In this document: positions 47,376-60,540 of the stretch, piece by piece
Position numbering within the stretch: the stretch's first letter is position 1
Layout: the number at the start of each line of letters is the position of its first letter
Virus record (IMG/VR): IMGVR_UViG_3300009124_000009
Span: 7,014 to 71,013 of that record
Reading direction: 5' to 3' (one strand)
From: a virus
DNA length: 64,000 nucleotides
Made by a program: the position numbers and the translations under genes
Notes under the pieces: model-generated
Told to the model about the DNA's origin: nothing
Database searches by the model: none
The model's input: only the letters and a program-made list of their open reading frames with translations

Positions 47376-47401
47376 GTGTGTCAGTTAGTGTTAGTTAGTG
47401 A

Positions 47402-47725: not shown

Positions 47726-47788
47726 GAGAGACGATTTGAGAGGGTTTAGAGTGTGGAGAGAGAGATCGGGTCTCATTCCCCTCCACTC

Positions 47789-48031: not shown

Positions 48032-48035
48032 TTTG

Positions 48036-48794: not shown

Positions 48795-49042
48795 TTCGTT
48801 GTTAGCGATGGGTCAATGATTGATCCTGGTTTCTTGCTATTGATTGGGGAATGAATAGCACGAGTTTTGTTATGAATAAACCCCCAGATTGTTTGGACTT
48901 GTTCGTTAGTGTAAGTGAACTTATTAGGGGGATGGACTAACCATACAGCAGTGAAAGTTTTATTGAATGGTGTTACTTTGTAGTGATAGTCTTTTGGGGG
49001 TTTGTGTGGTAGAGGGGGATCAATAGCGATTGGATTGTTCAT
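48740..49042 (-). CDS. Hypothetical cyanophage protein (100 aa, MNNPIAIDPPLPHKPP...)
   Basis: ORF 48740..49057; TIWGF..HSPINSKKPG motif. Confidence 0.7.
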   Translation of the reverse strand: MNNPIAIDPPLPHKPPKDYHYKVTPFNKTFTAVWLVHPPNKFTYTNEQVQTIWGFIHNKTRAIHSPINSKKPGSIIDPSLTTKWTAMHPPKLNPLQQLFL

Positions 49043-49178
49043 ACAATTTACGATCAAGATAGTCTAAATGTTGATCGGGCGTCATGTAATCTTCAACACA
49101 ACCAGTATAATATATGTGCGAACGAATAGGGCGAGTGTTGTTACGAACTGAATTGGTTTGGCGTTGTTGACGTGACAT
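49020..49178 (-). CDS. Small hypothetical protein (52 aa)
   Basis: ORF 49020..49241, ATG at 49178 after the upstream stop. Confidence 0.55.
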   Translation of the reverse strand: MSRQQRQTNSVRNNTRPIRSHIYYTGCVEDYMTPDQHLDYLDRKLYEQSNRY

Positions 49179-49182
49179 CGAA

Positions 49183-49395
49183 TCAGGGAAAGTAAGGGGT
49201 GAGAATGTTACGATAGTCGATGTATTTGATACAGAAACCAACAGCAGATGTGATTTCTTCGATTAGATCATCGGGGTCAGATGCTTCCCAATATGATCCT
49301 AGAATCTCCTCGTAGATTTCCTGTTGTTCATTAGGTGAAAGTTCAAAATTGTCATCCTCAAAATCAAATGTGATTTCAGTGATTTGGTATTGCAT
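49183..49395 (-). CDS. Small acidic hypothetical protein (70 aa)
   Basis: ORF track; translationally coupled to the upstream ORF. Confidence 0.7.
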   Translation of the reverse strand: MQYQITEITFDFEDDNFELSPNEQQEIYEEILGSYWEASDPDDLIEEITSAVGFCIKYIDYRNILTPYFP

Positions 49396-49595
49396 TAGTT
49401 GAACAAATCGTTGAGGATAGATTTAGCAGTAGGTTCGGGGCGGATTTGCTCACTTGCCCAGTCTAATCCGTTTGCAATGTTAGAACGAGTGTCAGGGGAG
49501 TTAGCAATCAGAACACCGATGACAATGAGGAGAAGAACTTTCACTTGAGTTGCGTAGAAGTTTGCGGAACGAGATTTAGTGAGTGACTTGAGCAT
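49395..49595 (-). CDS. Small membrane protein (66 aa, MLKSLTKS...)
   Basis: 3' part of ORF 49395..49832; one hydrophobic segment VLLLIVIGVLIA. Confidence 0.6.
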   Translation of the reverse strand: MLKSLTKSRSANFYATQVKVLLLIVIGVLIANSPDTRSNIANGLDWASEQIRPEPTAKSILNDLFN

Positions 49596-49596
49596 G

Positions 49597-49902
49597 TTAG
49601 TAACGAGAATCACCTGCGACGATTGCATCATCCATGCCCGCAACTTCTGCTGCTTGCTCCCAAACATTGTAGAACATATCCCAAGCATAGTTGTCTGCAA
49701 CGAAGGTGGAAATGTCACACATTTCGCATACCCAATCGTATGCCATATCTGCATCTGCATTGTTATCAACGACGAAATCGTAGAGTTGTCCGATAACATC
49801 GCAGAAGCGAGAATCTTCTGCAAGAGAAACAAAGAACTTGCCAGTTTCGTTGTCGATCATGATACGCTTGCCAGTGATGGAGTGTGCAGATTTGTGAGTC
49901 AT
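49597..49902 (-). CDS. Acidic early protein (101 aa, MTHKSAHS...)
   Basis: 3' part of ORF 49597..50049; ATG at 49902 follows promoter copy 2. Confidence 0.7.
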   Translation of the reverse strand: MTHKSAHSITGKRIMIDNETGKFFVSLAEDSRFCDVIGQLYDFVVDNNADADMAYDWVCEMCDISTFVADNYAWDMFYNVWEQAAEVAGMDDAIVAGDSRY

Positions 49903-49950
49903 TTTGTTTGAGGTTAGTGTGTGTGGGGTTCGTTTCCCCCCCGTTGAAAC

Positions 49951-50010
49951 CAATATAGGGCATTTGGGGGGTCTGTGCCAGAAAAGTGGACACCGTGCCG
50001 ACTGGCACAC
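49951..50010 (-). promoter_or_regulatory. Early promoter with upstream palindrome, copy 2
   Basis: Minus strand GTGTGCCAGTCGGCACGGTGTCCAC ... TATATT. Confidence 0.7.
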
Positions 50011-50017
50011 TAGTTCT

Positions 50018-50191
50018 TTACACTGTGGCAGGTGACAGACTAACATCAACTCGCTTTAGATTCAATCCAGCAAGTTGGTCAATCACGCGATCGTGGATCT
50101 TCGTGCAAGCATTTTTTGCACGAGATTGTTCATACCAAATGGTCGTACATCCGTCGTTGGTCTCTACTTGAACGCGAATAGTTTGAGTCAT
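50018..50191 (-). CDS. Small hypothetical protein (57 aa)
   Basis: Manual translation MTQTIRVQVETNDGCTTIWYEQSRAKNACTKIHDRVIDQLAGLNLKRVDVSLSPATV*; ATGA overlap with the upstream stop. Confidence 0.65.
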   Translation of the reverse strand: MTQTIRVQVETNDGCTTIWYEQSRAKNACTKIHDRVIDQLAGLNLKRVDVSLSPATV

Positions 50192-50415
50192 TGGAGTGTG
50201 AAATTGGGGATGAAAGTGAACTCGTATTTACCATCTTGCGGATCAACTCCGCCCACTAACCATTCTTCACAAATTGCAATCGCATCTTCATTGTTTCCTT
50301 CTTTGATACGATCTTGCATTGCTTCAAACAACGTGTCTGCCATGTTGTCGATAGAATGTTCCATTTCAGGGGTTTCGTCGTTGTTAGTGAACAGGTCGAG
50401 AGTTGAATCGTGCAT
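50188..50415 (-). CDS. Small acidic hypothetical protein (75 aa, MHDSTLDLF...)
   Basis: 3' part of ORF 50188..50502. Confidence 0.65.
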   Translation of the reverse strand: MHDSTLDLFTNNDETPEMEHSIDNMADTLFEAMQDRIKEGNNEDAIAICEEWLVGGVDPQDGKYEFTFIPNFTLQ

Positions 50416-50425
50416 TGTTAGAAAC

Positions 50426-50617
50426 TCAGAAAGGATTGGTCCAGTTGTTGTACTGATTCTCGGAAATGTAACCCTCTTTGCAGAGTGAATCAGTGAAGTC
50501 ATTCCATTCGGTACGCTTCCAAACTACGTCATTCTTGAGTTTGGGATGTGCAATAGTGATGACTTTCCAGTTATGACGAAACTGTGAAAGTGCTTGTGCT
50601 TTTGTGATGGTTCGCAT
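50426..50617 (-). CDS. Small early protein (63 aa)
   Basis: ORF track; AGGA upstream; first gene after promoter copy 3. Confidence 0.75.
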   Translation of the reverse strand: MRTITKAQALSQFRHNWKVITIAHPKLKNDVVWKRTEWNDFTDSLCKEGYISENQYNNWTNPF

Positions 50618-50639
50618 TGCGTTCCTTTCGGTTGATGCT

Positions 50640-50702
50640 TATAGTATGGCACACCCTAGGGGCGTTCGGGGGGTTTAGTGTGCAGTTCGGTGATTGGCAC
50701 AC
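50640..50702 (-). promoter_or_regulatory. Early promoter with upstream palindrome, copy 3
   Basis: Minus strand GTGTGCCAATCACCGAACTGCACAC ... TGC-CATACT. Confidence 0.75.
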
Positions 50703-50845
50703 ACGTCATCGTAAGATGCACCTACGGGGATAGATTTGCAGAAACGTTCTAACTTAGCGTCCTGCATTTTGCTGACTGATTGAATGGCAGAAGAACCAAT
50801 CACACCGCCCATGATGAGAACAAAAGCGAGAAGAATGAAGCGCAT
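50675..50845 (-). CDS. Small protein with N-terminal signal/TM segment (56 aa)
   Basis: Manual translation MRFILLAFVLIMGGVIGSSAIQSVSKMQDAKLERFCKSIPVGASYDDVCANHRTAH*; GGAGG upstream. Confidence 0.65.
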   Translation of the reverse strand: MRFILLAFVLIMGGVIGSSAIQSVSKMQDAKLERFCKSIPVGASYDDVCANHRTAH

Positions 50846-51096
50846 CAGATAACCTCCTGTGCCAGGAACTTGTTGATAGTTTCTTCAGGCACGAAATCTT
50901 CACAAAACTCGCGCAACTGTTGCTCGTCTTCCATACAATAGAGAGAATAGATTTCATCTAAAATCTGATAATCGCTGCACGATTGCATGTTATTCTCAAT
51001 AGTATCGATGGCAAAAGATACGAGATCTTGCATATCCATAGCATCAACAATCTGTTGAGCGTAGGTTTCAATTAGTTGTGCGCGTTGCATAGTCAT
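50845..51096 (-). CDS. Small acidic hypothetical protein (83 aa)
   Basis: ORF track. Confidence 0.7.
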   Translation of the reverse strand: MTMQRAQLIETYAQQIVDAMDMQDLVSFAIDTIENNMQSCSDYQILDEIYSLYCMEDEQQLREFCEDFVPEETINKFLAQEVI

Positions 51097-51123
51097 TGTG
51101 GTGAAATAATGCGGAGAAAAGGA

Positions 51124-51360
51124 TCAGCAGCAGGCAGGAGAATAGTTAGAAGAATCAGTCAGAAAGTCTGTGACTTCGTAACCAAGATCAAGACGCGCAT
51201 TTACGGTTTCGATCATCTCTTTACGAGACATAAGACGGATGGATTTAGTCATTTCATCACCCATAAACTTGAGGGTGTAGACAAACTTATCGCTGAGAAT
51301 TGCATGGGGTTGAAACTCAACAACCATAGCGCGGGATTGACCTTTTGAAGTGAGTTGCAT
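51124..51360 (-). CDS. Small early protein (78 aa)
   Basis: ORF track; first gene after promoter copy 4. Confidence 0.75.
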   Translation of the reverse strand: MQLTSKGQSRAMVVEFQPHAILSDKFVYTLKFMGDEMTKSIRLMSRKEMIETVNARLDLGYEVTDFLTDSSNYSPACC

Positions 51361-51382
51361 GTGCTTTGCTTTGTTTGACTCT

Positions 51383-51446
51383 TATAGTATGGCACCCTAT
51401 GGGGCGGAAATCAATCGGTAGTGGACACTTTGACCAACTGGCACAC
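51383..51446 (-). promoter_or_regulatory. Early promoter with upstream palindrome, copy 4
   Basis: Minus strand GTGTGCCAGTTGGTCAAAGTGTCCAC, then TTGATT-17-CATACT with extended TG. Confidence 0.8.
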
Positions 51447-51447
51447 C

Positions 51448-51615
51448 CTAGAAAACATTAGTCCACCTCGCGTGATTTGCTTTGCTGATTCTACCCTCTG
51501 CCAACATATTGTCGCAGACGTTGACAAAGACTTGAAACTTTTCCTCTCTAGTGAGAGAATGTGGTTCAGCAGCAGTAGAAATCACCCTAAGCATTTGTGC
51601 CTTTGATGTAATCAT
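51448..51615 (-). CDS. Small protein (55 aa), apparent paralog of 50426..50617
   Basis: Manual translation MITSKAQMLRVISTAAEPHSLTREEKFQVFVNVCDNMLAEGRISKANHARWTNVF*; ATGA overlap. Confidence 0.7.
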   Translation of the reverse strand: MITSKAQMLRVISTAAEPHSLTREEKFQVFVNVCDNMLAEGRISKANHARWTNVF

Positions 51616-51863
51616 TTGATGGAAACGTTGAAGTTTTGAAGATCAGTTTGTGTGATGGTTTCTTTACCCGAGAGCATCGAAAGATCCTCTCTAAGTGTCC
51701 ACATTTTGTCATCTTGTGCGATAACAGCAAACCCGAAAACACCTGCGGTTGGCATCATGTAGAGACCATGCTTTTCTGCCTGTTTAGCACTACCAAACCC
51801 ACGGGCAGTGATAGTCCAATCTTTACCGAAGTATGCACAAATGAAATCAGTCATTATAATCAA
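51612..51863 (-). CDS. Hypothetical protein (83 aa)
   Basis: ORF track; overlaps its neighbours by 4 nt. Confidence 0.7.
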   Translation of the reverse strand: MIIMTDFICAYFGKDWTITARGFGSAKQAEKHGLYMMPTAGVFGFAVIAQDDKMWTLREDLSMLSGKETITQTDLQNFNVSIK

Positions 51864-52063
51864 CCTCCGAAGTTGTCATCCATGAAGGCAGAATCCTGCC
51901 CACGATCATCACCGAACATTTCAGTGTAGAGGTCAAGATTCTGATTCTTGTACTTCTCGTTGGTCATCCAGATCTCTTGCTCAATCCATGCAAGTTCTGC
52001 GCGTTTCTTTAGCAGTTGCTCACGCAGATCGTAGAGTCGTTGATTGCGTTCGGTTAGAGTCAT
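51860..52063 (-). CDS. Small coiled-coil early protein (67 aa)
   Basis: ORF track; AGGA upstream; first gene after promoter copy 5. Confidence 0.75.
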   Translation of the reverse strand: MTLTERNQRLYDLREQLLKKRAELAWIEQEIWMTNEKYKNQNLDLYTEMFGDDRGQDSAFMDDNFGG

Positions 52064-52085
52064 TTGTGTTCCTTTGTTTGACTCT

Positions 52086-52150
52086 TATAGTATGGCACAC
52101 CTGAGAGGCATCCACAAGCGCCTGTGTGCCACTTTAGGCAACTGTCACAC
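52086..52150 (-). promoter_or_regulatory. Early promoter with upstream palindrome, copy 5
   Basis: Minus strand GTGTGACAGTTGCCTAAAGTGGCACAC, then TTGTGG-17-CATACT with extended TG. Confidence 0.8.
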
Positions 52151-52336
52151 CCCAAACCCTCCTTTATCTTCTTTTTCCATCCTACGGTTAGCATCAACGA
52201 TCTCACGAAGTTTATTCTTCATGAATCTCAACTCTTCCTCTTTGTAGAGAAATGGGTTATCATCACCGTTCTGAATTGCTTTCTTCAGTTTCTTGATTTG
52301 CGATCGAATTGTTGGCATTGGTTTGTAAGAAATCAT
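52145..52336 (-). CDS. Small basic hypothetical protein (63 aa)
   Basis: ORF track; ATGA overlap with the oxygenase stop; ends in KGGFG. Confidence 0.7.
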   Translation of the reverse strand: MISYKPMPTIRSQIKKLKKAIQNGDDNPFLYKEEELRFMKNKLREIVDANRRMEKEDKGGFGV

Positions 52337-52977
52337 CGGACAATTTGTTGCTCGTAATATCCATCGCCCATTATTCCTTTGACAGAATAATTGACAACGA
52401 CATTCAGTCTATCATCATTTGATAGATTTTCTGGTGTTCCATGAAACGTAAATGCAGGAAATATGACCATTGTTCCTGCTTGTGGACTGATAGTCATTTC
52501 ATTAGCATTTAGTTCATTGGATCTTTCTAGTCTGGGTTTCAATGATGGCGTCATCCAGGTATGACGTAGACTCTCTTTTTCAAACTTTAGTCCACCACCA
52601 TCCTCAGGCATTTTAGTGTAAAGTATGCCAGACCAGAGACAATTCTCATGGCAATGTTGTGGAGCAAAGTCTAATGTCTTGTGCCACATTGACCACGAGC
52701 GATTGCAATCTAGTTTAGTTGACTCTTTATCAACTGCCAGGGCATCATACACATAGTGATGCATTTCTGCTTTGATTGCATTAGAAACGTCATCAAACTG
52801 TGGTAGTTTGAGAATCTCTTTGTTGACAGTTGTTTTACCTGTTGTGTTGTTACCCTTTACATCTTCCCACTCAAGATCTAGAAGACGTTTGTTGACATCT
52901 TCTAGATCAAGATTGTACTTTAGATGTATATCCTCTTCGATGTAAAGTGGGATTGCGAATAGTGGTAGAATTGCCAT
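52333..52977 (-). CDS. Putative 2OG-Fe(II) oxygenase (214 aa)
   Basis: HCH..WSGILY, GTMVIFPAFTFHG and distal R (DDRLNVVVN): double-stranded beta-helix oxygenase motifs common in cyanophages. Confidence 0.85.
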   Translation of the reverse strand: MAILPLFAIPLYIEEDIHLKYNLDLEDVNKRLLDLEWEDVKGNNTTGKTTVNKEILKLPQFDDVSNAIKAEMHHYVYDALAVDKESTKLDCNRSWSMWHKTLDFAPQHCHENCLWSGILYTKMPEDGGGLKFEKESLRHTWMTPSLKPRLERSNELNANEMTISPQAGTMVIFPAFTFHGTPENLSNDDRLNVVVNYSVKGIMGDGYYEQQIVR

Positions 52978-52978
52978 A

Positions 52979-53488
52979 TCATTTCATATAAAGGTAACCA
53001 CCTGCCCAGTCTGCTTTCTCATAACACTCCTCGCGAGATTTGTCATCGAGTAGATTATAACGAGCACCCTTTGCAGGAGACTTGAATGATGCAGGTTTGA
53101 AAACATCGCCCGTCTTCTTGTCTACAAAGGCATGAACTGAGCGACTGCTAGAGTTATCCTGCTCCATGATAATCTTATAGTATTTACGTCCTTCTTCAAT
53201 AGGAAATGCAACCTCAGGATCACTATTAGCGATCTGATCTATGCGCTTTTGATGATAGTCTGCCTCAGACATGTTGCCTGCATTGGCAGCAAAGAAAAGA
53301 GAGCGTTTGTGTGATTGCATACAGCGAATCTTATAGTCCATGACTAGATTCTCACACAGCATGAGAGTATAATGATCTACCTGTTCTTGAGTTGATTGGC
53401 GTTCACCTTCGGTTGCACAATACTCAGCAAAAGACATACGTTCTTTCTCTTTGTTGTTGAGATGGATTTGATACTTGATTGCAGACAT
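52979..53488 (-). CDS. Conserved phage hypothetical protein (169 aa)
   Basis: GRKYYKI..SVHAFVDKKTGDVFKPASFKSPAKGARYNL..ADWAGGYLY, a recurring T4-like phage early family. Confidence 0.8.
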   Translation of the reverse strand: MSAIKYQIHLNNKEKERMSFAEYCATEGERQSTQEQVDHYTLMLCENLVMDYKIRCMQSHKRSLFFAANAGNMSEADYHQKRIDQIANSDPEVAFPIEEGRKYYKIIMEQDNSSSRSVHAFVDKKTGDVFKPASFKSPAKGARYNLLDDKSREECYEKADWAGGYLYMK

Positions 53489-53490
53489 AA

Positions 53491-53688
53491 TCAGTTTTCG
53501 TTGAGGAAATCGTGAAGTGCTTCTTGATACTCTTCGTAGGAAGAATAACGATCTTGAAGATGTGCAGGAACTTGCTTTGCAGCAGGTTTCCGACAGTCAC
53601 TGGCATCATAACCAGATTCGATGAGAGTTTGAACGTATGGATTTGAGTGCATTTGTTTCCAGTAATTAGAGTCGAACTTTGGCATCAT
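53491..53688 (-). CDS. Small early protein (65 aa)
   Basis: ORF track; first gene after promoter copy 6. Confidence 0.7.
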   Translation of the reverse strand: MMPKFDSNYWKQMHSNPYVQTLIESGYDASDCRKPAAKQVPAHLQDRYSSYEEYQEALHDFLNEN

Positions 53689-53945
53689 TGGGTTTTTCCC
53701 TTTGATTGCTTAGCAATCTTAGCACCTGGGGACCGCTTTCGGCGTGGTTTGGGTGCAGTTTCAGGATTGGCACACTCTAGTACGAATGTACCTTTCTTCA
53801 ACTTGTATTGTTTGATATACTTTTCCGCGTTCTCTTTGCAGTGGAAAAAGCATAGTTTCATGGGAGGTTTTTTCCTCCCTTCTTTAGGTCCATCCTGGTG
53901 TTCTAGACGCCAGGGCATACTCTCGTAGGGAAACTTTTCAGACAT
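53685..53945 (-). CDS. Small basic hypothetical protein (MSEKFPYE...)
   Basis: ORF 53685..53981; probable ATG at 53945 overlapping the nuclease stop; PWRLE..LCFFHCKENAEKYI motif. Confidence 0.65.
   Translation of the reverse strand: MSEKFPYESMPWRLEHQDGPKEGRKKPPMKLCFFHCKENAEKYIKQYKLKKGTFVLECANPETAPKPRRKRSPGAKIAKQSKGKTQ
53716..53775 (-). promoter_or_regulatory. Early promoter with upstream palindrome, copy 6 (inside the 3' end of the upstream ORF)
   Basis: Minus strand GTGTGCCAATCCTGAAACTGCACCC ... TGC-TAAGAT at the same spacing as the other copies. Confidence 0.65.
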
Positions 53946-54447
53946 ATTCATCCATCCAGTAGAAGTCTTCAGGCATACCATCGAGGAAGAATGTGCCGCT
54001 ATTTACTTTCTTTCCGCCATGCTGATTGTAGATCCATTCATTCTTCTCATTGACAACCATTACATGCTTCTTGATGGTATCTTTGTCAGCATAGAAGAAA
54101 CAAATGCTAGAATGATAGACGGCAACAAATACCATCACATCGTAATCTTGCGCGGGACGGATCTGCTGCCAGCGGAAATGTGTGCCCTTATCCCACATGA
54201 ATGATCCTTTGATCTCTACCTTTAGACCATCAACAATACGATCGTGATCGCTATTCTTGGGTTTCTCTACTTTCTTGCCTTTGCTAACACAATACTCCTC
54301 AAAGATCTTCTCAAAATACTTACCTTTCTTCTTGCTGCTGAGTTGCTTCAGCGGTTGAAATACGCTGCCATGATAGTAGTCATCGTCATGCTCATTGAGA
54401 ATCTCAGCATAACAATCAAGTTTCTGGAATTGAGTGGCGTGAAGCAT
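53938..54447 (-). CDS. Type IIP restriction-endonuclease-like PD-(D/E)xK nuclease, probable MseI (T^TAA) family (169 aa)
   Basis: Catalytic pattern KGKYFE...SDHDRIVDGLKVEIKGS; downstream W..G..F.WQQIR..QDYD and QHGG match MseI as I recall it (SDADRVINGHRIEIKMSTLW..FKFQQIR.QEYD..QHTG); first gene after promoter copy 7. Confidence 0.75.
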   Translation of the reverse strand: MLHATQFQKLDCYAEILNEHDDDYYHGSVFQPLKQLSSKKKGKYFEKIFEEYCVSKGKKVEKPKNSDHDRIVDGLKVEIKGSFMWDKGTHFRWQQIRPAQDYDVMVFVAVYHSSICFFYADKDTIKKHVMVVNEKNEWIYNQHGGKKVNSGTFFLDGMPEDFYWMDEYV

Positions 54448-54466
54448 TGCGAATCTCTTTGACCTT

Positions 54467-54530
54467 TATAGTATTGCACCTTTCACGGTGCTTTGCAAGT
54501 GATAGTGGACAGTTTGACCAACTGGCACAC
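54467..54530 (-). promoter_or_regulatory. Early promoter with upstream palindrome, copy 7 (drives the nuclease)
   Basis: Minus strand GTGTGCCAGTTGGTCAAACTGTCCAC, then TTGCAA-17-AATACT with extended TG. Confidence 0.8.
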
Positions 54531-54730
54531 TATCCCCAGTTTTCCATCCATTCTGCTAAAGTGTAACCTTCATCCGTACAGGTTTCTTCCACTAACTCTT
54601 CGAGAGTTAGTTTCTCTATGTCTGCACGATACTCCTCTGGAGTAGGATCTTCGGGATCATAATCGTCATGGCAGAGATACTCCCACTCTGCCACCAGTGC
54701 ATCAATCAGTTGTTGTTTAGTGTAGTTCAT
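54530..54730 (-). CDS. Small very acidic protein (66 aa)
   Basis: ORF track; 20 of 66 residues are D/E. Confidence 0.7.
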   Translation of the reverse strand: MNYTKQQLIDALVAEWEYLCHDDYDPEDPTPEEYRADIEKLTLEELVEETCTDEGYTLAEWMENWG

Positions 54731-54733
54731 AAA

Positions 54734-55972
54734 TCAGCAATATGCGAGGGGAGGAATACCTTCCATGAAGATCTGGTTGACAACATTCTGCAAACGTGCA
54801 GCGATAGCGTTACCCATCTTGTAACCTGTAGGCATAGTCACGATGCCCTCTTGTTTCTTGTAAAGGTGAAACGCACCAGCAGGAATCAGACCCTGAGCAA
54901 CAGCAGCACGGTCATCTTTGTGGACACGGATAACACGACCGATCGTCTGTGCCATCTCAATGATGGGCAGATTACGCAGCAGAATAGTATGCGTCAGACC
55001 AGGAACATTGATGCCCTCAGAGAGAATGGAATAGTGGAAGATTACAAACTTCTTGCTATCATCAGCACCCCAAGATGTGAGGGTCTGGAAGAACTCTTCA
55101 CGACCAACTTTGCGATCATTGATGATAGCACCAAACTTGCTGGTGATGTGCATCACGTCGTAACCTTTGCGGTAGAAATACTCCAGAATGTCAGTCTGTC
55201 CGAGCATGTTACCCAGCACCTTAGAAGATGGTGCAGCAACCAGAACTTTAGGATTCTGGAAGACATCGAGTTGCTCAAACATATCCTTCAGATTGTCTGC
55301 ATCAACCTCATGTGCGTTATGCTTAGTGCGGGTGCGATTGGTCTCGAAAGGAACAATGCGGGGAGGAACGATTGCACCTGCTTCGATGAGTTCTTGAGCA
55401 GGGACATTGCAGAGAGTGCCACCATAAACGTCGCTATTGTTCATGCCACGAGTTACACTAGTGCCGCGACCAGTGCGAGGAGTTGCAGTAAAATAGTAGC
55501 GACGTTTGGCATACTGTGCGGTAGCATATACAGCACCGAAGAAGTGACGACCGCAACCATTGTGTGCTTCGTCGAAGTAAATGGTATCAATATCGATGCC
55601 ACTATCTACAACACGGGGCAGAGAATGATAGGTGGTAAAGATCAGCGTAGACTTGGCATTACTGCGCCACAGAGTAGCAGCAGAAGCAATCTCTGCTGGT
55701 TTGGTAGTGCTGAAGTGGTGAGTTTCGCCACTGTGAACGTGCATAACGCGAGTCGAAGTAGCAGACACAAACTCCATGAACTCTTCGCACAGTTGATTAG
55801 CGAGAAGAATACGGGGAGCAACAACAACTGTAGTGCTACCCTGTGCAGCACGAGCAAGACAATCAGCGATCATGATGTAAGTCTTGCCACCACCAGTAGG
55901 CACAATGATCTGACCCTTATCGTGCTTCTGCATTGCATCGAAAGCACGTTGTTGATGGGGGCGGAGTTGCAT
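54734..55972 (-). CDS. Superfamily-2 DEAD/DEAH-box helicase, ResIII-like (412 aa)
   Basis: Q motif LRPHQ, Walker A PTGGGKT, DEAH, TAT, LSEGINVP and QTIGRVIR; start re-assigned to MQLRPHQ (55972) downstream of promoter copy 8. Confidence 0.9.
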   Translation of the reverse strand: MQLRPHQQRAFDAMQKHDKGQIIVPTGGGKTYIMIADCLARAAQGSTTVVVAPRILLANQLCEEFMEFVSATSTRVMHVHSGETHHFSTTKPAEIASAATLWRSNAKSTLIFTTYHSLPRVVDSGIDIDTIYFDEAHNGCGRHFFGAVYATAQYAKRRYYFTATPRTGRGTSVTRGMNNSDVYGGTLCNVPAQELIEAGAIVPPRIVPFETNRTRTKHNAHEVDADNLKDMFEQLDVFQNPKVLVAAPSSKVLGNMLGQTDILEYFYRKGYDVMHITSKFGAIINDRKVGREEFFQTLTSWGADDSKKFVIFHYSILSEGINVPGLTHTILLRNLPIIEMAQTIGRVIRVHKDDRAAVAQGLIPAGAFHLYKKQEGIVTMPTGYKMGNAIAARLQNVVNQIFMEGIPPLAYC

Positions 55973-55997
55973 TACGAGTTGATTTCTCAAGTATGCA

Positions 55998-56059
55998 TAT
56001 AGTATTGCATAAAAAAAGTCCCCTGTCAAGAGGACTGTGACGCTTATTCAGGTGGCACA
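55998..56059 (-). promoter_or_regulatory. Early promoter with upstream palindrome, copy 8 (TTGACA-17-AATACT)
   Basis: Minus strand TGTGCCACCTGAATAAGCGTCACA, then TTGACA at 56024-56029 and TGC-AATACT. Confidence 0.75.
56011..56036 (-). terminator. Rho-independent terminator overlapping the -35 box of promoter copy 8
   Basis: Minus strand AGTCCTCT-TGAC-AGGGGACT followed by a T run, just after the stop at 56044. Confidence 0.7.
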
Positions 56060-56250
56060 TTGCGTAAGTGCAGTTTGTCAATGATGTCATCTACTTGTGC
56101 AAAGAGTAAATCATACTCTTCTGATGTAACTGTCTTATCATTGTAATAGTGTTTTTGCAATTCTGCAATATACAAAAACATTGCACGTCTAGCGATTTCT
56201 TTCTCTTCATGTGAGAGAATTGCGGTGCGAAGTGATGTCATTGAAGTCAA
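56044..56250 (-). CDS. Hypothetical protein (68 aa)
   Basis: ORF track. Confidence 0.65.
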   Translation of the reverse strand: MTSMTSLRTAILSHEEKEIARRAMFLYIAELQKHYYNDKTVTSEEYDLLFAQVDDIIDKLHLRNVPPE

Positions 56251-56441
56251 TAGCGGCGGAGAGTCTTCAAATAGTCAAGAACATATGAACGAATGTACAT
56301 AAGTTCGTGATAACATTTTTGGTTGTGAGCACACTGACGCAGTGCTGGATCTGGTTTTAGTACAGATTCGACAAACAAATCAAGTCCTCGGTTGAACTTG
56401 ATGTCTTCGCTTTCGTTTTCAAACATGTGATTTTCATTCAA
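56247..56441 (-). CDS. Hypothetical cyanophage protein (64 aa)
   Basis: ORF track; RGLDLFVESVLKPD..LRQCAHNQKCYHELM motif. Confidence 0.7.
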   Translation of the reverse strand: MNENHMFENESEDIKFNRGLDLFVESVLKPDPALRQCAHNQKCYHELMYIRSYVLDYLKTLRRY

Positions 56442-56494
56442 CCCTTACATTATATCTAGTATGTTAGGGGTTGTCCATGGAGGAAATCTAAAGA

Positions 56495-56596
56495 TTATTC
56501 GTATTCAATGACGCAATCATTAGAAAGTTCATACTCTGGATAATCATCATACTCATCGAGAGTATAAGTATCATCCTCATCCATAGTTTCGTTCAT
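56495..56596 (-). CDS. Tiny very acidic protein (33 aa)
   Basis: Manual translation MNETMDEDDTYTLDEYDDYPEYELSNDCVIEYE*. Confidence 0.5.
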   Translation of the reverse strand: MNETMDEDDTYTLDEYDDYPEYELSNDCVIEYE

Positions 56597-56598
56597 AA

Positions 56599-56787
56599 TC
56601 AATACTCGTAGTTTTCGTAGTTATAGTCTGAGTTGTTGTCCCAGTTTTTGTTCTTACGTTTCTTATTCTTCTGGGCATCAATAGTTTCCCAGTTGTTACG
56701 AGTGCTGCCACGTTGACGCTTTTCTCGCAGTGATTTACTACCGTAGGAATAGTAATCATCTGGATTGCGGCGATAAGTACGACCCAT
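56599..56787 (-). CDS. Small basic protein (62 aa, MGRTYRRN...)
   Basis: 3' part of ORF 56599..56835, downstream of a sigma70-type promoter. Confidence 0.65.
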   Translation of the reverse strand: MGRTYRRNPDDYYSYGSKSLREKRQRGSTRNNWETIDAQKNKKRKNKNWDNNSDYNYENYEY

Positions 56788-56823
56788 CTGTTTGTGTTGT
56801 GTGTTGAATAGACGACAATGTAT

Positions 56824-56852
56824 ATAGTACCCCAATCATGCAGATTTGTCAA
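56824..56852 (-). promoter_or_regulatory. sigma70-type promoter TTGACA-17-TACTAT
   Basis: tgtcaa at 56847-56852, atagta at 56824-56829. Confidence 0.75.
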
Positions 56853-56872
56853 TGATTAGGGTACGGTTACCA

Positions 56873-57103
56873 TCAGTAATCGCAGAGAGGTTGTTCAGTA
56901 AGATACTGACTCGCTTTCACCTCAGTTTTGTCCTCAGTTTCGATCTCAGTATCATTCTGCACGATAAGTTCGTCGAAAACATACCCAGATCCACGCAAGA
57001 AGTCAGCGATGTTTGCTACTGCATCGTCAAGAAATACAGTCTCAAACTTTTTAGTAGTCTTTGCTCCGTCTTCATCAACAGAGGTGAGTTTGAAGGTAGG
57101 CAT
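56873..57103 (-). CDS. Hypothetical protein (76 aa)
   Basis: ORF track; FE...LDDAV..IADFLRGSGY motif common in T4-like phages. Confidence 0.75.
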   Translation of the reverse strand: MPTFKLTSVDEDGAKTTKKFETVFLDDAVANIADFLRGSGYVFDELIVQNDTEIETEDKTEVKASQYLTEQPLCDY

Positions 57104-57126
57104 AAAAGAAATCCGTGGACCTAGGT

Positions 57127-57173
57127 ATCATACCACCTCAGATCCACGGAGTCAATGTTAGTGTGTGCCAGTT
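57127..57173 (-). promoter_or_regulatory. sigma70-type promoter TTGACT-17-TATGAT with a half-site of the early palindrome (copy 9)
   Basis: agtcaa at 57150-57155, atcata at 57127-57132, gtgtgccagtt at 57163-57173; an inverted repeat TCCGTGGA..TCCACGGA brackets the -10. Confidence 0.7.
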
Positions 57174-57174
57174 A

Positions 57175-57654
57175 CTATTCTGGTTTGGGTAACTGGTCCT
57201 TCACACGCTGGTTCAGGTAGTAAAAACGACCAGTCTTAGCATCCTCACCGAACTTTCCTGCTTTGATGTCATCGAACAGAGCACCAAGTTGTGCATCTAA
57301 ACCAGGATATGCTCTGATTCTTTCACGTTGATATTGATCATTAGTCCAACGTGTTCTCAGGATTTCAAGTCTCTCAACTGCCTCATCATAGGAGAATGGT
57401 GGAAGACCTTTCATCAGATTCCATGGGTCTCCAGTAGCAGGATCAATGCCACGATTGAGACCCTGAATCTCATCAGGGATACCATCTCCATTCATGTCGG
57501 TATCAAACCACTTGAATGCTTCTGCCCAGTTGTCTCTAGTAATGTCATACCAGGACAGCATATTAGTGAACTCATACCGCTCACTATCTCTACACAGAGA
57601 TGCAACAGCATCTACAATGTCAGGTTCTTGTAGTTCTAGAGGATTGTAAAACAT
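57175..57654 (-). CDS. Putative tail-fibre assembly/chaperone-like protein (159 aa)
   Basis: C-terminal YQRERIRAYP..QLGALFDDI...VKDQLPKP resembles small proteins following fibre genes in marine phages; contains a DxNxDG motif (DMNGDGIPDE). Confidence 0.55.
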   Translation of the reverse strand: MFYNPLELQEPDIVDAVASLCRDSERYEFTNMLSWYDITRDNWAEAFKWFDTDMNGDGIPDEIQGLNRGIDPATGDPWNLMKGLPPFSYDEAVERLEILRTRWTNDQYQRERIRAYPGLDAQLGALFDDIKAGKFGEDAKTGRFYYLNQRVKDQLPKPE

Positions 57655-57655
57655 A

Positions 57656-58372
57656 TCAATATCTCGTTAGGTTATATGTCGTGAAGTTAGTGGTGTTGAC
57701 CTCCCACACTTCGATACATGAGTTGTTCCAACCATTGCGACGATAGTCATCACCAATACCACAGTTCACACGATAGTTCACATCGTTGTGTCTATCCATA
57801 TAGATTCTATACTTATGGTTCTGTGTATTATTTACAACAGGAACATATGCAAAGAATGAACCAACCTCATACCAGTCACCAAGACCGTTCACATAGTTTG
57901 AGTGAGATCCCATGTCTAGGATTCTAGACCAACCAGCATTATTGACGTTTCTGAATAGACCGAAACCAAATCCGTCAGGGTTAGATGGACCACCAGAGTC
58001 ATCAACAACACTGGACCAATAGATTCTGTGCCAGTTGTTACCATTCTCAGGAATACCACAGTCGATCTCAGTACCATTGATGAACATCATGTTCGATGTA
58101 CTAGTACCACGACGACTAGAGCAGGTTTGATTCACTGTAGTGCCACCATTTGCCCACACTCTTACAATGTTCTGCTGGGCAGTTTGTGGAACCCAAGCAC
58201 TACCATTCCAAGTGAGTTGTTGATTGACTCCAGGAGAACCTGCACTAAGATCTGTTAGATCATTCAGTGCCACATTTTTGGTAGTGATAGCAGTGCCATC
58301 AGTAAACTGAACACCAGTTGCACCTGTTGTAATAGTAGAGGCGTTGACTGTTCCTACATTTAGTTGGGACAT
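57656..58372 (-). CDS. Short fibre-like / receptor-binding virion protein (238 aa)
   Basis: MSQLNVGTVN..GVQFTDGT..LNDLTDL..QQLTWNGSAWVP shaft motifs (also seen in the gp9-like protein) followed by a beta-rich head; own late promoter. Confidence 0.65.
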   Translation of the reverse strand: MSQLNVGTVNASTITTGATGVQFTDGTAITTKNVALNDLTDLSAGSPGVNQQLTWNGSAWVPQTAQQNIVRVWANGGTTVNQTCSSRRGTSTSNMMFINGTEIDCGIPENGNNWHRIYWSSVVDDSGGPSNPDGFGFGLFRNVNNAGWSRILDMGSHSNYVNGLGDWYEVGSFFAYVPVVNNTQNHKYRIYMDRHNDVNYRVNCGIGDDYRRNGWNNSCIEVWEVNTTNFTTYNLTRY

Positions 58373-58391
58373 TTTCTACACGGTTTTCTTT

Positions 58392-58398
58392 TATTTAT
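58392..58398 (-). promoter_or_regulatory. Late promoter (ATAAATA)
   Basis: tatttat overlapping the upstream stop, 20 nt before ATG 58372. Confidence 0.7.
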
Positions 58399-60191
58399 GA
58401 TTCTGGGATAGGTGTAGCATAATCTGCTCGCAAATGCACAGGAATCTCTGGTGCTGGTGGTGCAAACTCATTCTTACCAATCACCATGACCATCACACCA
58501 TTCCACCAACCAAGTTCATCCTCAATGTCTTGAGAACGTAGAACTTTCTTGAATAGTACAGCAAACTTACGATCTTTACAGAGTCTATCTACTGCTTCAA
58601 CAACACCATCAAAGTTACAATCATCCACCACAAGTGTGAACGGATCAGTTGCAAACTGATAGAACTGCGACAGATTCTGATATGTTGACCTAGCATCATG
58701 ATCTGCATCGTAGAAGATCACCTCAGGTGGATACTGTTCATTTAGTTGAGACAATGAAAAGATGTCTCTGTTCATAAACAGAACAGCATTGTCACCCATA
58801 TACTTCTCAGCATTCTTTTTGAACTCAGAGATAGGATCATCAATAGGTTCCCAGGGAATATCATCACGAGCAGGTGCAATGTTCTCCTGACTGTAGTTAT
58901 CAATGGCATATGCTTTCACGTCATTGCCCATTATTGCTGCCCATAGTGTGCTACCTACGAAACAACCTAGGTCAGCATATACTACAGGATTACCATCAGT
59001 GGACTTGCACAGATTGTTGAGCAGGTGTCTAACTTTATTGGAAGATAGACCCTTCACATCATATCCTTCCTCGTTGAAATTAGATTGATGCAGTAGTGCA
59101 TCTTCGATTGCTTTCTGTGCTCTCAATACTTGTGGATGTAACACTTTATTCTGTCTCCTATAATGTGCATCAACAACAGACTCACAATAGTTGCAGTCCC
59201 AACATTCAAACTTACACGTCTTGATCTTCTCTCTCCAGATGTCAATAGGTTTCTCTTCCAGTTGAACATCTTCAATATACTTATCAAACTCAGGGAATAG
59301 TAGTGGTTCACCTTTACTCCAGCGTTCAACAATATCCATCGATTCTTTCAATCGCATCATGCTCTCGCGTCCATGCATCTTGAAACAATCAATACCATAG
59401 TAGTTGATAAACTCGTCCCAATCATCACGCCAGGGCGGCAGGTTTGCTGCTTTTAGTGAGGTAGAACTATCAAGTGAGTCCCACTTCTCACAAGATTGAA
59501 TACTAATCTCATCAGCAAAGTATTGCACATCATTCTCTGGTCCTTTGGTGCAGTTGTAATGGTAGTGCTCATCCATCATGGGACAACCACCCCAACAACC
59601 CTCATTTGTCAGCAGAGATAACTCTACTGGCATACCTTCACGAGCACAGTATTCTTTTGCTTGCCTGATTCTATACAGAGTATCAGCATCACGCATCAAA
59701 TCTCTGTCTAGGTTGATGTAGTGGAATCCTGCCTTTGCTAACTCTACGATCTCCTGTGGTTTAGTTACGTTACGCAGAATGGTATTCTTGATGAATAGAT
59801 CAGGGAAGATCTTTTGGATCATACCAGATGCAACCCAGTGAGTATGTGGTAGCGTTACAATACGAACACCAGCATCATAAACTGGTTGGAAATATCTACA
59901 CCATGTTCTCAGATTATCCATCGTTGGTGGAACATGAATGTTATTGAATGTAGCAGACAGTGGTAGATCACTAAGTTCTGCAATCTTCAATGCATTGATA
60001 GTTGTCGCCTGATACATCTCAGGTTCAGTGTACACATCACCCATCGCATCCTGTGTGAACGGTGGGATCCTACATGTGAAATATAAATCTCTGATGTATT
60101 GATGATTTAGATTCAAGAATGGGACAAATGTCTCCATCATAAACTTCTCATCCATCTTGGGATTGATGGGGAGACTGAACACTTTATTCAT
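58395..60191 (-). CDS. Peptidase-U32-family (Fe-S) domain fused to a class I SAM-dependent methyltransferase (598 aa)
   Basis: N-part: INLDRDLMRD, NEGCWGGCP..EH, FKMHGRE, CKFECWDCNYC. C-part: YADLGCFVGST, AYAIDNY, IFYDADH, LVVDD (Methyltransf_24-like). Confidence 0.7.
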   Translation of the reverse strand: MNKVFSLPINPKMDEKFMMETFVPFLNLNHQYIRDLYFTCRIPPFTQDAMGDVYTEPEMYQATTINALKIAELSDLPLSATFNNIHVPPTMDNLRTWCRYFQPVYDAGVRIVTLPHTHWVASGMIQKIFPDLFIKNTILRNVTKPQEIVELAKAGFHYINLDRDLMRDADTLYRIRQAKEYCAREGMPVELSLLTNEGCWGGCPMMDEHYHYNCTKGPENDVQYFADEISIQSCEKWDSLDSSTSLKAANLPPWRDDWDEFINYYGIDCFKMHGRESMMRLKESMDIVERWSKGEPLLFPEFDKYIEDVQLEEKPIDIWREKIKTCKFECWDCNYCESVVDAHYRRQNKVLHPQVLRAQKAIEDALLHQSNFNEEGYDVKGLSSNKVRHLLNNLCKSTDGNPVVYADLGCFVGSTLWAAIMGNDVKAYAIDNYSQENIAPARDDIPWEPIDDPISEFKKNAEKYMGDNAVLFMNRDIFSLSQLNEQYPPEVIFYDADHDARSTYQNLSQFYQFATDPFTLVVDDCNFDGVVEAVDRLCKDRKFAVLFKKVLRSQDIEDELGWWNGVMVMVIGKNEFAPPAPEIPVHLRADYATPIPES

Positions 60192-60538: not shown

Positions 60539-60540
60539 AG

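Follow-up and report, generated by a model that had tools for sequence, protein, structure and literature searches.

The cyanophage contig described here carries a gene for a protein resembling Type II restriction endonucleases and is almost free of the tetranucleotide TTAA. We consider it likely that this protein is an active, homodimeric Type IIP restriction enzyme whose target is, or contains, TTAA, that it derives from an ancestral restriction-modification (R-M) pair, and that the sites were purged from the phage genome and the methylase lost. Because the nuclease has been kept, the methylase lost and the DNA left almost without TTAA, self-protection apparently relies on the lack of a cut site instead of on a mark placed on the DNA. 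The analysis shows that the protein has the fold and catalytic motif of a restriction enzyme, that its relatives point to R-M ancestry, that TTAA content goes with the gene and the state of its methylase, and that the orphan nuclease is under purifying selection; TTAA cleavage, early expression and the choice of target DNA are inferred. The window (the whole stretch of DNA that was analysed, 64 kb in length) is the last part of a 71,013-bp contig, estimated by CheckV at about 40% of a genome. Its relevant features are collected in Table 1.

Table 1. Features of the window, with positions counted from its first base.
Feature	Position	Strand	Remarks
98-aa ORF	53685..53981	-	Occupies the slot of the cognate DPPY methyltransferase in relatives; not a methylase remnant
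Nuclease ORF	53938..54447	-	169 aa, PD-(D/E)XK Type II restriction-endonuclease-like
Promoter-like upstream region	54448..54529	-	TTGCAA, 17 nt that include the inverted repeat GCACC-N6-GGTGC, and AATACT with TG before it
66-aa ORF	54530..54730	-	Between helicase and nuclease
Helicase, T4-GC 36 type	54734..56029	-	Synteny anchor
TTAA-free stretch	1..63764		No TTAA in the 7,013 contig bases that precede the window either
Sole two TTAA sites	63765-63768 and 63910-63913		One within petE (63587..63910, -) and one at its start; at most 236 bp from the contig end

The nuclease and its gene neighbourhood

An earlier reading, made from the sequence only, had described a 169-aa PD-(D/E)XK protein with the motif SDHDR...VEIKGS, and both the ORF and the motif were confirmed when the sequence was read again. 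The protein matched the PADLOC REase_II model PDLC03515 (6.3e-16; residues 19-131 on profile positions 27-137 of 186) and PHROG 6927 (2e-21), a PHROG family without known function. Profile searches of Pfam and NCBIfam returned no family for it, and the sole match in a PDB sequence search was a chance antibody (E 0.64). Leads from the ESM Atlas consisted of viral clusters without names and a Bsp6I-domain cluster at 0.92. Homologs were named "hypothetical protein" or nothing at all in their sources, the exceptions being a "restriction endonuclease Mrr" and an obviously mistaken "ferredoxin"; since such names are uninformative, no link to MseI was drawn from them.

Residues E46, D69, E78 and K80 showed no variation across 35 close homologs. 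Among 52 distant homologs K80 was invariant and E46, D69 and E78 were each at least 90% conserved. The putative catalytic residues fit an E...D...(D/E)xK arrangement. An AlphaFold2 model of the protein (pLDDT 93.4) retrieved I-Ssp6803I, NhoI, Eco15I-N, PvuII and EcoRV with Foldseek (E 3e-5 to 3e-3). The top structural match was I-Ssp6803I (PDB 2ost; Foldseek E 3e-5; VIA Z 11.2, rmsd 2.6, 110 aligned residues, 21% identity), and in a wide VIA search it was followed by NhoI (Z 10.5) and then by Hjc (about 8). The core is thus predicted to adopt a restriction-endonuclease-like alpha/beta fold. Structurally, the protein is closest to a homing endonuclease and to methyl-dependent enzymes, and the lack of a known TTAA cutter among these neighbours counts against the main reading.

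A homodimer predicted from an alignment of our own scored 0.81, compared to 0.00 for the best of three controls, with 100% agreement of contacts between runs and a partner pLDDT of at least 90. Among solved proteins, 20 of 30 pairs of one chain attain the mark used for this score, compared to 1 of 23 single chains. Because the alignment was our own and solved dimers of restriction endonucleases exist, the prediction may lean on them and its score may partly mirror known structures. The gene itself is well maintained: dN/dS was 0.12-0.15 against relatives of 83-85% identity, and 0.07-0.16 (at dS 0.5-2.1) for orphan nuclease genes, which are maintained by purifying selection.

It had been proposed that the gene lies behind an early promoter. 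A GCACC-N6-GGTGCAATACT element is present at 54470-54491 (-), immediately 5' of the nuclease ATG, and the promoter-like motif, allowing up to 3 mismatches, has three matches in the window (54470, 51386 and 47793) where 0.36 would be expected. A generic sigma-70 promoter scan, however, made no call upstream of the nuclease. The proposal is confirmed in part, and the nuclease may be expressed early in infection. The order of helicase followed by nuclease homolog is common to S-ShM2 (SShM2_058, then SShM2_059) and locus L059 (2796-4076, then 4139-4576). The 98-aa ORF downstream of the nuclease was considered as a methylase remnant and rejected, as a permissive HMM search of positions 50000-57000 gave no match to the phage methylase profile at E<=5.

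In the 71-kb contig, searches for a DNA methyltransferase with PF01555, PF02086, PF00145, PF02384 and PF05869 returned 0 matches each (E<=1). Likewise, no ORF of at least 120 aa in the contig combined [DNS]PP[YFW] with an FxGxG-type motif, and no remnant of the cognate methylase was detected within 3.5 kb of the nuclease (E<=5). The earlier statement that no methyltransferase gene lies next to the nuclease or anywhere in the window is therefore borne out, and the absence extends over the 71 kb of the contig. The comparison of gene, methylase state and TTAA content presented below strongly supports the more general idea of an orphan nuclease with immunity by site avoidance, but because the contig is incomplete the orphan state holds here for 71 kb only.

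TTAA content and methylase state in related phages

Counting in the window returned only the two TTAA sites of Table 1, as had been claimed earlier. Dinucleotide-preserving shuffles of the same 64 kb had a mean of 331 sites (sd 16), and all 100 shuffles held at least two. For the whole contig, 2 sites compare to 219 expected from a Markov-2 model or 519 from base composition. Avoidance depends on codon context, as seen in ORFs of at least 150 codons: none of 431 [F/I/V][K/N] pairs uses an NTT codon, and Leu TTA, although used 84 times, is found in 0 of 514 cases before A. Similarly, 0/16 TAA stops are preceded by T. The two remaining sites in petE, near the contig end, count against the main reading; possible causes are recent recombination, a chimeric assembly where the contig ends, and tolerance of these sites.

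The TTAA purge is real, but TTAA is not the only word that has been purged, contrary to what the sequence-only reading implied. Observed/expected counts in the contig were 0/50 for CCGG, 18/159 for AGCT, 5/37 for GGCC, 10/124 for AGCC and 10/47 for GGCT. In 77 control loci CCGG (122/620) and AGCT (457/2059) are depleted without the nuclease as well. Depletion of CCGG and RGCY is independent of the nuclease gene, in carriers and non-carriers alike. Since these words were purged with no linked nuclease in view, external pressure can purge sites in these phages. The earlier reading overlooked this gene-independent purge, and it also overlooked that the nuclease descends from an R-M pair.

In related cyanomyoviruses a gene for a DPPY beta-class N6-adenine methyltransferase lies directly 3' of the same nuclease gene, and because of this adjacency we take a phage-borne R-M pair to be the ancestral state. 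At 29 of 59 phage nuclease loci a 250-aa DPPY...FMGSG methylase begins at the nuclease stop or overlaps it. This phage methylase matches PF01555 (8e-47), with M.RsrI, M.MboIIA and CcrM as the closest relatives of solved structure. Distant bacterial homologs of the nuclease have a PF01555-type methylase directly upstream in 35 of 38 cases, the remaining 3 being located at a contig edge.

TTAA content follows the state of these two genes. Loci without nuclease (n=79) had a median TTAA observed/expected ratio (O/E) of 0.84 and none was below 0.25; equal depletion in relatives lacking the gene, which was looked for as a possible refutation, was thus not seen. Loci with nuclease and methylase (n=29) had a median of 0.50 and each keeps at least 2 sites, although 6 of them are already below 0.1. 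In loci with nuclease where the methylase is lost or decayed (n=23) the median was 0.01, with 13 below 0.1. Mann-Whitney p values for the three comparisons were 6e-13, 2e-10 and 1e-4, and they overstate independence because near-duplicate contigs are included. An intact methylase was seen in none of the 13 loci with zero TTAA (4 decayed, 7 absent and 2 ending at a contig edge there). The expectation that presence of the gene predicts TTAA near zero therefore needs amending: the purge is confined to carriers, but it is complete only when the methylase is decayed or gone.

When pooled, 8 orphan or decayed loci held 2 of 516 expected TTAA sites and 77 controls 5452 of 6278, a ratio of 0.004; the second most differential of the 256 tetramers had a ratio of 0.72. 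No other tetramer sets orphan carriers apart from non-carriers in this way. Site avoidance, which is the only basis for assigning a specificity here, gives indirect but strong support to the reading that the nuclease would recognise and cleave TTAA.

Decayed methylases are present in four loci (L023, L024, L027 and L030) with 0 TTAA of 64-80 expected. Their lesions convert DPPY to EPPP or EPPS, delete 14 or 35 aa, and change FMGSGST to FMGDGDT or FVGDGST. As judged from these sequences, the four loci represent an intermediate stage between R-M pair and orphan nuclease. Neutral drift of the decayed methylase was rejected for L023 and L027, where dN/dS was 0.18, and the decayed protein may therefore have another role. 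The closest relatives of the nuclease studied here (L136, L137, L138 and L139; 83-85% identity) had TTAA counts of 0/26, 0/29, 0/16 and 0/19. No methylase was found in the 7.6-12.9 kb around the nuclease in the first three, and L139 ends 440 bp past the gene. A relative of 54% identity (L140) has the methylase and 24 of 26 expected sites.

Larger genomes gave the same picture. The isolate S-ShM2 (179,563 bp) has 0 TTAA vs 586 expected, and the uncultured phage G007 (192,351 bp, CheckV 100% complete) 0 vs 693. Both carry an orphan nuclease and neither complete genome contains PF01555; among these relatives an orphan nuclease at whole-genome level is seen in S-ShM2 and G007 only. G006 has 0 of 321 expected sites in 111,966 bp, and its sole methylase is a decayed copy. 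S-BM3 has the nuclease and, unlinked to it at a distance of about 80 kb, a cognate methylase (464 bits on the profile), and keeps 37 TTAA sites in 74 kb. S-H35, whose helicase is the closest to that of the window (90.6%), has no nuclease and a normal TTAA content (168/201).

Several observations count against the main reading. In six loci (L019, L045, L046, L049, L050 and L051) the nuclease retains its catalytic residues and the locus holds no methylase, yet TTAA O/E is 0.42-0.56. They might be accounted for by a methylase far from the nuclease, like that of S-BM3; PF01555 was not found in the three contigs searched, those of L045, L046 and L049, which are 17-32% complete. A 6-bp site containing TTAA was rejected as the explanation for half-depleted carriers, as the leftover sites span all NTTAAN contexts, and so were dead nucleases in the group resembling S-ShM2 and S-BM3, where the catalytic residues are intact. 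There are also TTAA-rich islands at the ends of the purged contigs L022, L031 and L037, and at least 6 changes of purge status on the nuclease tree, even among close relatives.

A proposed course from R-M pair to orphan nuclease, and other explanations

We propose that the nuclease would have started as the R half of a cyanomyovirus R-M pair, with the beta-class N6-adenine methyltransferase encoded downstream. TTAA would have been selected out of the phage genome in several lineages; the methylase would then have become dispensable, decayed and finally been lost. The end state would be a frequent-cutting nuclease without methylase that spares its own TTAA-free genome but is lethal to any other DNA in the infected cell with unmethylated TTAA, be it the host chromosome or a co-infecting phage.

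Which of these DNAs would be the target is less clear. The sequence-only reading emphasised shredding of host DNA to supply nucleotides, and this may be so, but DNA of rival phages is an equally good target. It is possible, if less probable than our main reading, that with the same enzymology the selected role is phage competition, by killing co-infecting cyanophages that bear TTAA, or post-segregational "addiction", with host DNA breakdown being secondary. Typical cyanomyoviruses, at TTAA O/E of about 0.85, would be cut because they have hundreds of sites per genome, and descent from an R-M pair is in keeping with selfishness or exclusion. The present data do not separate host from rival-phage target. 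Passages of PMC7019647 give a precedent that weighs against a role in competition: the restriction enzymes of chloroviruses, which are 2-4 bp cutters, are credited there with rapid host DNA degradation, while mutual exclusion was reported not to be due to them.

We regard it as unlikely that this phage is not truly an orphan carrier and still has an unlinked cognate methylase in the roughly 60% of the genome that lies off the contig, which would place it at the stage of an R-M pair with a purged genome. S-BM3 provides an example of such an arrangement, the contig is 40% complete by CheckV, and the six intact-methylase loci below O/E 0.1 have purged genomes while still paired. Nevertheless, the complete orphan-nuclease genomes S-ShM2 and G007 lack any PF01555, the relatives L136, L137 and L138 have no methylase around the gene, and no zero-TTAA locus has an intact methylase in view, two of them ending at a contig edge.

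Slightly less probable still is that restriction of TTAA by the host, or from another external source, purged the site and that the nuclease is incidental, being inactive, of other specificity, or captured together with its methylase from such a host. Against this, none of the 79 nuclease-less loci is below O/E 0.25. S-H35 and S-ShM2 are recorded on one host strain, WH8102, yet their TTAA counts are 168/201 and 0/586. In addition, decay or loss of the methylase is confined to purged genomes, in which the nuclease is under purifying selection, and a scan for exact patterns, covering 185,579 prokaryote species with one genome apiece, found no close homolog. As a host with a TTAA R-M system methylates its own DNA, a TTAA nuclease retained by the phage would have no host target. 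The purging of CCGG and AGCT in the controls without any tie to the nuclease does speak for external restriction, as do the switches of purge status among close nuclease relatives and the six half-depleted loci with no methylase in view.

It is very improbable that the protein is a free-standing homing endonuclease like I-Ssp6803I, selfish and with a long target unrelated to TTAA: although I-Ssp6803I is its best structural match, T4-like phages have many free-standing homing endonucleases, and the gene lies between conserved genes and varies in presence among close relatives, nuclease relatives are translationally coupled to a DNA methylase, unlike homing endonucleases, the bacterial ones form M-R cassettes in 35 of 38 loci, the PADLOC REase_II model is matched, and a homing endonuclease would give no reason to expect a 4-bp palindrome to vanish across the genome. 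I-Ssp6803I itself, a cyanobacterial PD-(D/E)XK enzyme with the closest solved fold, is intron-encoded, has a long target, and differs from the phage nuclease in having no methylase partner and no tie to a 4-bp word.

Known systems and significance

Several known systems come close to this one. T4 EndoII and EndoIV (DenA/DenB) attack host-type DNA while the T4 genome is immune through hydroxymethylcytosine throughout; the nuclease studied here would be similar in belonging to a T4-like phage whose own genome is immune, but its immunity would reside in sequence composition with ordinary bases. M.MseI is an N6-adenine methylase. MseI (T^TAA) resembles the cyanophage system in the target inferred for the latter and in the N6-adenine type of the partner methylase in relatives. 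MseI was assigned to the PD-(D/E)XK enzymes by sequence analysis in a classification from 2008 (PMC2441816), which is compatible with, but no test of, homology to the phage nuclease; putative colinear motifs shared with MseI were proposed in the earlier reading.

Chloroviruses are also lytic viruses of a phototroph with frequent-cutting restriction enzymes and adjacent R and M genes (R.CviAII and R.CviJI with their methylases), but they shield their own DNA by methylation, and the same passages describe orphan methylases, not orphan nucleases (PMC7019647). In the cyanophages, by contrast, the methylase decays, protection would come from site absence, and the host is a bacterium. The PacI site is 8 bp long and AT-only, and its absence is cheap in a GC-rich genome. 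PacI of Pseudomonas alcaligenes is a solitary restriction enzyme without cognate methylase, a situation explained by site absence in the carrier genome (Ershova et al., 2012; passages of PMC3488263). It is, however, a bacterial rare cutter with an HNH fold (PMC3488263), whereas the word avoided here is 4 bp in a phage of 41% GC. As for PacI, carriers are without the site or almost so (2/~219 here; 0/586 in S-ShM2, 0/693 in G007 and 0/321 in G006). Because orphan carriers would be expected to have 586-1,414 TTAA sites per genome and 0 are found, sustained selection at hundreds of codon junctions is needed.

A literature search covering listings and abstracts found no published description of TTAA avoidance or of an orphan restriction enzyme in cyanophages, and the terms TTAA, Synechococcus and cyano have 0 occurrences in PMC6286503. 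Virus-encoded restriction enzymes were already known, and so was one bacterial rare cutter surviving without methylase through absence of its site. The new element is a methylase-less 4-bp cutter kept by a virus of about 180 kb, which would place hundreds of codon junctions under selection genome-wide. The loss of TTAA is a countable signature of enzyme specificity and activity available from sequence, and related phages offer a natural series that runs from an R-M pair, through the same pair in a purged genome and a decayed methylase, to an orphan nuclease. Isolates recorded on laboratory Synechococcus strains cover three states: S-ShM2 has an orphan nuclease and zero sites, S-BM3 combines the nuclease with an unlinked methylase and retains some sites, and S-H35 is without the gene and has a normal content. 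Host DNA breakdown, phage competition and the cost of a site are therefore directly testable.

We see about even chances that a TTAA R-M module has repeatedly run a one-way course, from pair through genome-wide purge and methylase decay or loss to an orphan 4-bp cutter with zero sites in a genome of 170-190 kb, serving as a weapon against host and rival phages and acting as a barrier to gene flow. If this is true, the phages would also supply a small enzyme of TTAA type together with its methylase. Imported TTAA-bearing DNA would be cut, so that TTAA content would bar gene flow between cyanophage lineages, and short-word content may then act as a recombination barrier among the cyanophages of the ocean.

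Nuclease family, fold and cognate methylase

The 169-aa open reading frame quoted in the sequence-only reading is present in the window. Searches of Pfam and NCBIfam returned no family match for its product, which matches PHROG 6927 (2e-21), a group without assigned function, and the PADLOC model PDLC03515 'REase_II' (6.3e-16). E46, D69, E78, K80, Q94, Q95, R97 and Q142-H-G-G145 are invariant in a 35-homolog alignment, and the first four of these make up the PD-(D/E)XK catalytic arrangement. MseI was placed in PD-(D/E)XK by sequence analysis in a 2008 classification (PMC2441816). The AlphaFold2 model (pLDDT 93.4) is most similar to I-Ssp6803I (Foldseek E 3e-5; VIA Z 11.2, rmsd 2.6, 110 aligned), with further matches to NhoI (Z 10.5), Hjc resolvases (Z about 8), PvuII and EcoRV. 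The nearest solved folds are thus those of a homing endonuclease and methyl-dependent enzymes and not of a TTAA cutter, a point against the proposed TTAA nuclease. The protein modeled as a homodimer scored 0.81, compared to 0.00 for the best of three controls (own alignment), with 100% of contacts agreeing between runs and partner pLDDT of at least 90. Among proteins solved as one-chain pairs, 20 of 30 attain that mark, compared to 1 of 23 single-chain ones. Because an own alignment was supplied and restriction enzyme dimers have been solved, resemblance to known structures may account for part of this result.

Among 1.84 billion representatives, a profile of the nuclease family matched 847 at E<=1e-3. 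Distant relatives in bacterial MAGs have a PF01555-type methylase directly upstream on the same strand in 35 of 38 loci, the other three lying at a contig edge. From this gene order, the nuclease family is the restriction half (R) of R-M systems of Type II.

Nuclease relatives in phages were collected from 52 viral contigs and 5 metagenome contigs (the latter with close relatives), together with 80 control loci anchored on the helicase gene that neighbors the nuclease. In most nuclease loci the stop of the nuclease coincides with the start of the cognate methylase gene (about 250 aa) or lies within it. The methylase matches PF01555 at 8e-47, and its motifs follow the beta-class order, with DPPY towards the N-terminus and FMGSG towards the C-terminus; the nearest solved proteins are the N6-adenine methylases M.RsrI, M.MboIIA and CcrM. 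All 59 nuclease loci were classed with a profile from 25 cognate methylases: 29 have the methylase, 4 a decayed copy and 19 none (no methylase with at least 800 bp of sequence downstream of the nuclease), and 7 are undecided at a contig end. No methylase remnant was found near the window nuclease. The earlier claim that the window has no DNA methyltransferase held for five Pfam families of DNA methylases across the 71,013-bp contig (about 40% of the genome).

Upstream of the nuclease lies one of three copies of a promoter-like motif, GGTGC[CA]ATACT after a short inverted repeat (three matches with up to three mismatches, 0.36 expected). The motif fits the separate suggestion of shared early promoters, although a generic promoter scan made no call at this position, and the nuclease would be a candidate early gene.

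Coordinates of features in the window and, where a locus is named, in related loci
Feature	Position	Strand	Remark
Nuclease	53938-54447	-	169 aa
Helicase	54734-56029	-	synteny anchor
Promoter-like motif	47793-47814	-	
Promoter-like motif	51386-51407	-	
Promoter-like motif	54470-54491	-	at nuclease
Only two TTAA sites of the window	63765-63913		in and at start of petE (63587-63910, -); 90-236 bp from contig end
Decayed methylase, L023	10426-11094		open frame
Decayed methylase, L027	10438-11094		open frame
Probable distant paralog cassette, L062	7396-9553		normal-TTAA phage
Probable distant paralog cassette, L064	7253-9511		normal-TTAA phage

TTAA avoidance and methylase state

The contig (71,013 bp, about 40% complete by CheckV) derives from a T4-like cyanomyovirus whose neighbors, by DNA and protein, are Synechococcus phages of Kyanoviridae; the window covers its bases 7014-71013. 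It has 2 TTAA, compared to 219 expected (Markov-2) or 519 (base composition). Dinucleotide-preserving shuffles of the window gave a mean of 331 (sd 16) against the two observed, at 63765 and 63910, and positions 1-63764 are free of the word as had been noticed. In ORFs of at least 150 codons, Phe/Ile/Val-Lys/Asn junctions use an NTT codon in 0 of 431 cases, Leu TTA is used 84 times yet in 0 of 514 cases preceding A, and 0 of 16 TAA stops directly follow T. The corresponding figures in S-H35, a Synechococcus phage without the nuclease, are 47/137, 14/156 and 2/5. Avoidance is thus directed at the DNA word and not at amino-acid content. The two sites at petE may represent recent recombination, an assembly chimera at the contig end, or tolerated sites; their persistence counts against an orphan TTAA nuclease.

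TTAA content follows both the nuclease gene and its methylase. Equal depletion in relatives lacking the nuclease was not observed: in 79 loci without a strong homolog, TTAA observed/expected (O/E, Markov-2) has a median of 0.84 and a minimum of 0.31, and 0/79 fall below 0.25. The median is 0.50 (range 0.02-0.91; 6/29 below 0.1) in the 29 loci with nuclease and methylase, and 0.01 (13/23 below 0.1) in the 23 where the methylase is absent or decayed. Mann-Whitney p values for the three-group comparison are 6e-13, 2e-10 and 1e-4, with independence overstated by the inclusion of near-duplicate contigs. All 13 loci with zero TTAA (L023, L024, L026, L027, L030, L033, L034, L035, L059, L136-L139) are without intact methylase, and all 29 methylase-bearing nuclease loci have at least two sites. 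L059, with 0 TTAA of 30 expected, is the sole near-zero locus among the 80 helicase-anchored ones, and no other of the 80 encodes a strong nuclease homolog, which in L059 immediately follows the helicase. In L136-L139, where the nuclease is closest to that of the window (83-85% identity), TTAA counts are 0/26, 0/29, 0/16 and 0/19 and there is no methylase match; in L140 (54% identity), where the methylase is present, the count is 24/26. Pooled counts are 2/516 in eight orphan or decayed loci (leaving out the near-copies L024 and L030) and 5452/6278 in 77 controls (leaving out L059, L062 and L064), a ratio of 0.004, compared to 0.72 for the runner-up among all 256 tetramers.

Several observations count against a phage TTAA nuclease that lost its methylase after site purge. 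Six loci with apparently intact nuclease and no methylase in the locus (L019, L045, L046, L049, L050, L051) are only half depleted (O/E 0.42-0.56). An unlinked methylase, as in phage S-BM3, would be the obvious explanation; PF01555 was not found in the three of these contigs that were searched (L045, L046, L049; 17-32% complete). The nuclease tree shows at least six changes of purge status, and the contig represents about 40% of its genome. TTAA-rich islands (3-7 per kb) occur at the ends of three loci with TTAA-free cores of 10-15 kb (L022, L031, L037), which points to mosaicism of the genomes or to chimeras in metagenome assembly.

Other words are also purged from the contig: CCGG (0/50), AGCT (18/159), GGCC (5/37), AGCC (10/124) and GGCT (10/47), the latter four forming the CviJI-type word RGCY. 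Strong depletion of CCGG and RGCY extends to nearly all cyanomyovirus loci examined (L053-L132 and the window). Since both are low in every locus group, controls included (CCGG 122/620, AGCT 457/2059), these purges are not tied to the nuclease gene; host restriction or other phage-borne systems are candidate causes. SPPY beta-class methylases lie near the helicase in many control loci. L062 and L064 carry a distant nuclease paralog (about 30% identity, E 1e-9 to 1e-11). Behind it lie two genes for PF01555-like methylases, of which one has the SPPY motif, and together they probably represent another R-M cassette of phages, with a different specificity.

Methylase decay and whole genomes (INTERMEDIATES)

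A damaged methylase follows the nuclease in L023, L024, L027 and L030, where TTAA is 0 of 64-80 expected. In place of DPPY it has EPPP or EPPS, with 14 aa missing just behind and another 35 aa deleted, and in place of FMGSGST it has FMGDGDT or FVGDGST; Pfam matches it in two stretches with 96 bits, compared to 160 bits for an intact copy. The frame is still open in all four and is under purifying selection (dN/dS 0.18), and the L023 and L027 copies are 88% identical, as are their nucleases. It may be kept for a non-catalytic role.

Larger sequences fit this picture. The 111,966-bp contig of L024 has only the decayed copy and 0 TTAA (321 expected). That of L033 (192,351 bp, 100% complete by CheckV) has the nuclease, PF01555 nowhere in the complete genome, and 0 TTAA (693 expected). 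In isolate S-ShM2 (NC_015281), SShM2_059 is a 35% identical nuclease homolog directly after the helicase; its whole 179,563 bp lack PF01555 and have 0 TTAA, compared to 586 (Markov-2) or 1,347 (composition) expected. S-BM3 (OQ319121) carries the nuclease and also a methylase (464 bits with the cognate profile) at a distance of about 80 kb. No other of 50,697 phage records has this methylase at E<=1e-30, and S-BM3 has 37 TTAA in 74 kb (233 expected). S-BM3 (L133/L181), S-ShM2 (L180) and S-H35 (L182) also have a second, widespread 'dam' methylase (T4-GC 161), and S-H35 has, at about 4 kb from its helicase, a 'DNA methyltransferase'; both are outside the cognate family.

Selection, host restriction and proposed origin

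Orphan nucleases are under purifying selection, with dN/dS of 0.12-0.15 between the window and L136-L139 (dS 0.75-0.94) and 0.07-0.16 within the L023-L034 clade (dS up to 2.1). With synonymous change this extensive, TTAA would have reappeared unless selected against. S-H35 (NC_055719) and S-ShM2 share their recorded host strain, Synechococcus WH8102. S-H35 retains 168 of 201 expected TTAA (35 kb), has no nuclease homolog, and its helicase is the closest to that of the window (90.6%). In addition, close nuclease homologs were absent from an exact-pattern scan that covered 185,579 prokaryote species with one genome per species. Both observations argue against host restriction as the cause.

Chloroviruses also encode R-M systems (PMC7019647), with the host chromosome as nuclease target, but protect their own DNA by methylation, where these cyanophages would rely on TTAA absence. 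PacI likewise lacks a partner methylase, which is accounted for by a carrier genome free of its sites; the carrier is a bacterium (PMC3488263) and not a phage of about 180 kb. Literature listings, abstracts and term searches yielded no account of a methylase-less 4-bp cutter in such a phage with a decay series in relatives.

A phage TTAA nuclease whose methylase was lost after site purge is thus, in our view, the probable explanation. The core of the sequence-only reading, an orphan restriction nuclease with immunity by site avoidance, is strongly supported by the comparison of relatives. Fold, catalytic motif, R-M ancestry, the association of nuclease, methylase state and TTAA content, and purifying selection are established, while TTAA cleavage, early expression and the target DNA are inferred. 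The nuclease would act as a Type IIP homodimer on TTAA or on a site that includes it, and its ancestor in phage would have had an N6-adenine methylase as partner. TTAA is already selected against where the methylase is present (median O/E 0.50 vs. 0.84); this selection would have emptied some genomes, after which the methylase would decay and be lost. The nuclease left in the end would spare the genome that encodes it and cut any unmethylated TTAA-bearing DNA, either that of the host chromosome, the target in chloroviruses, or that of rival phages.
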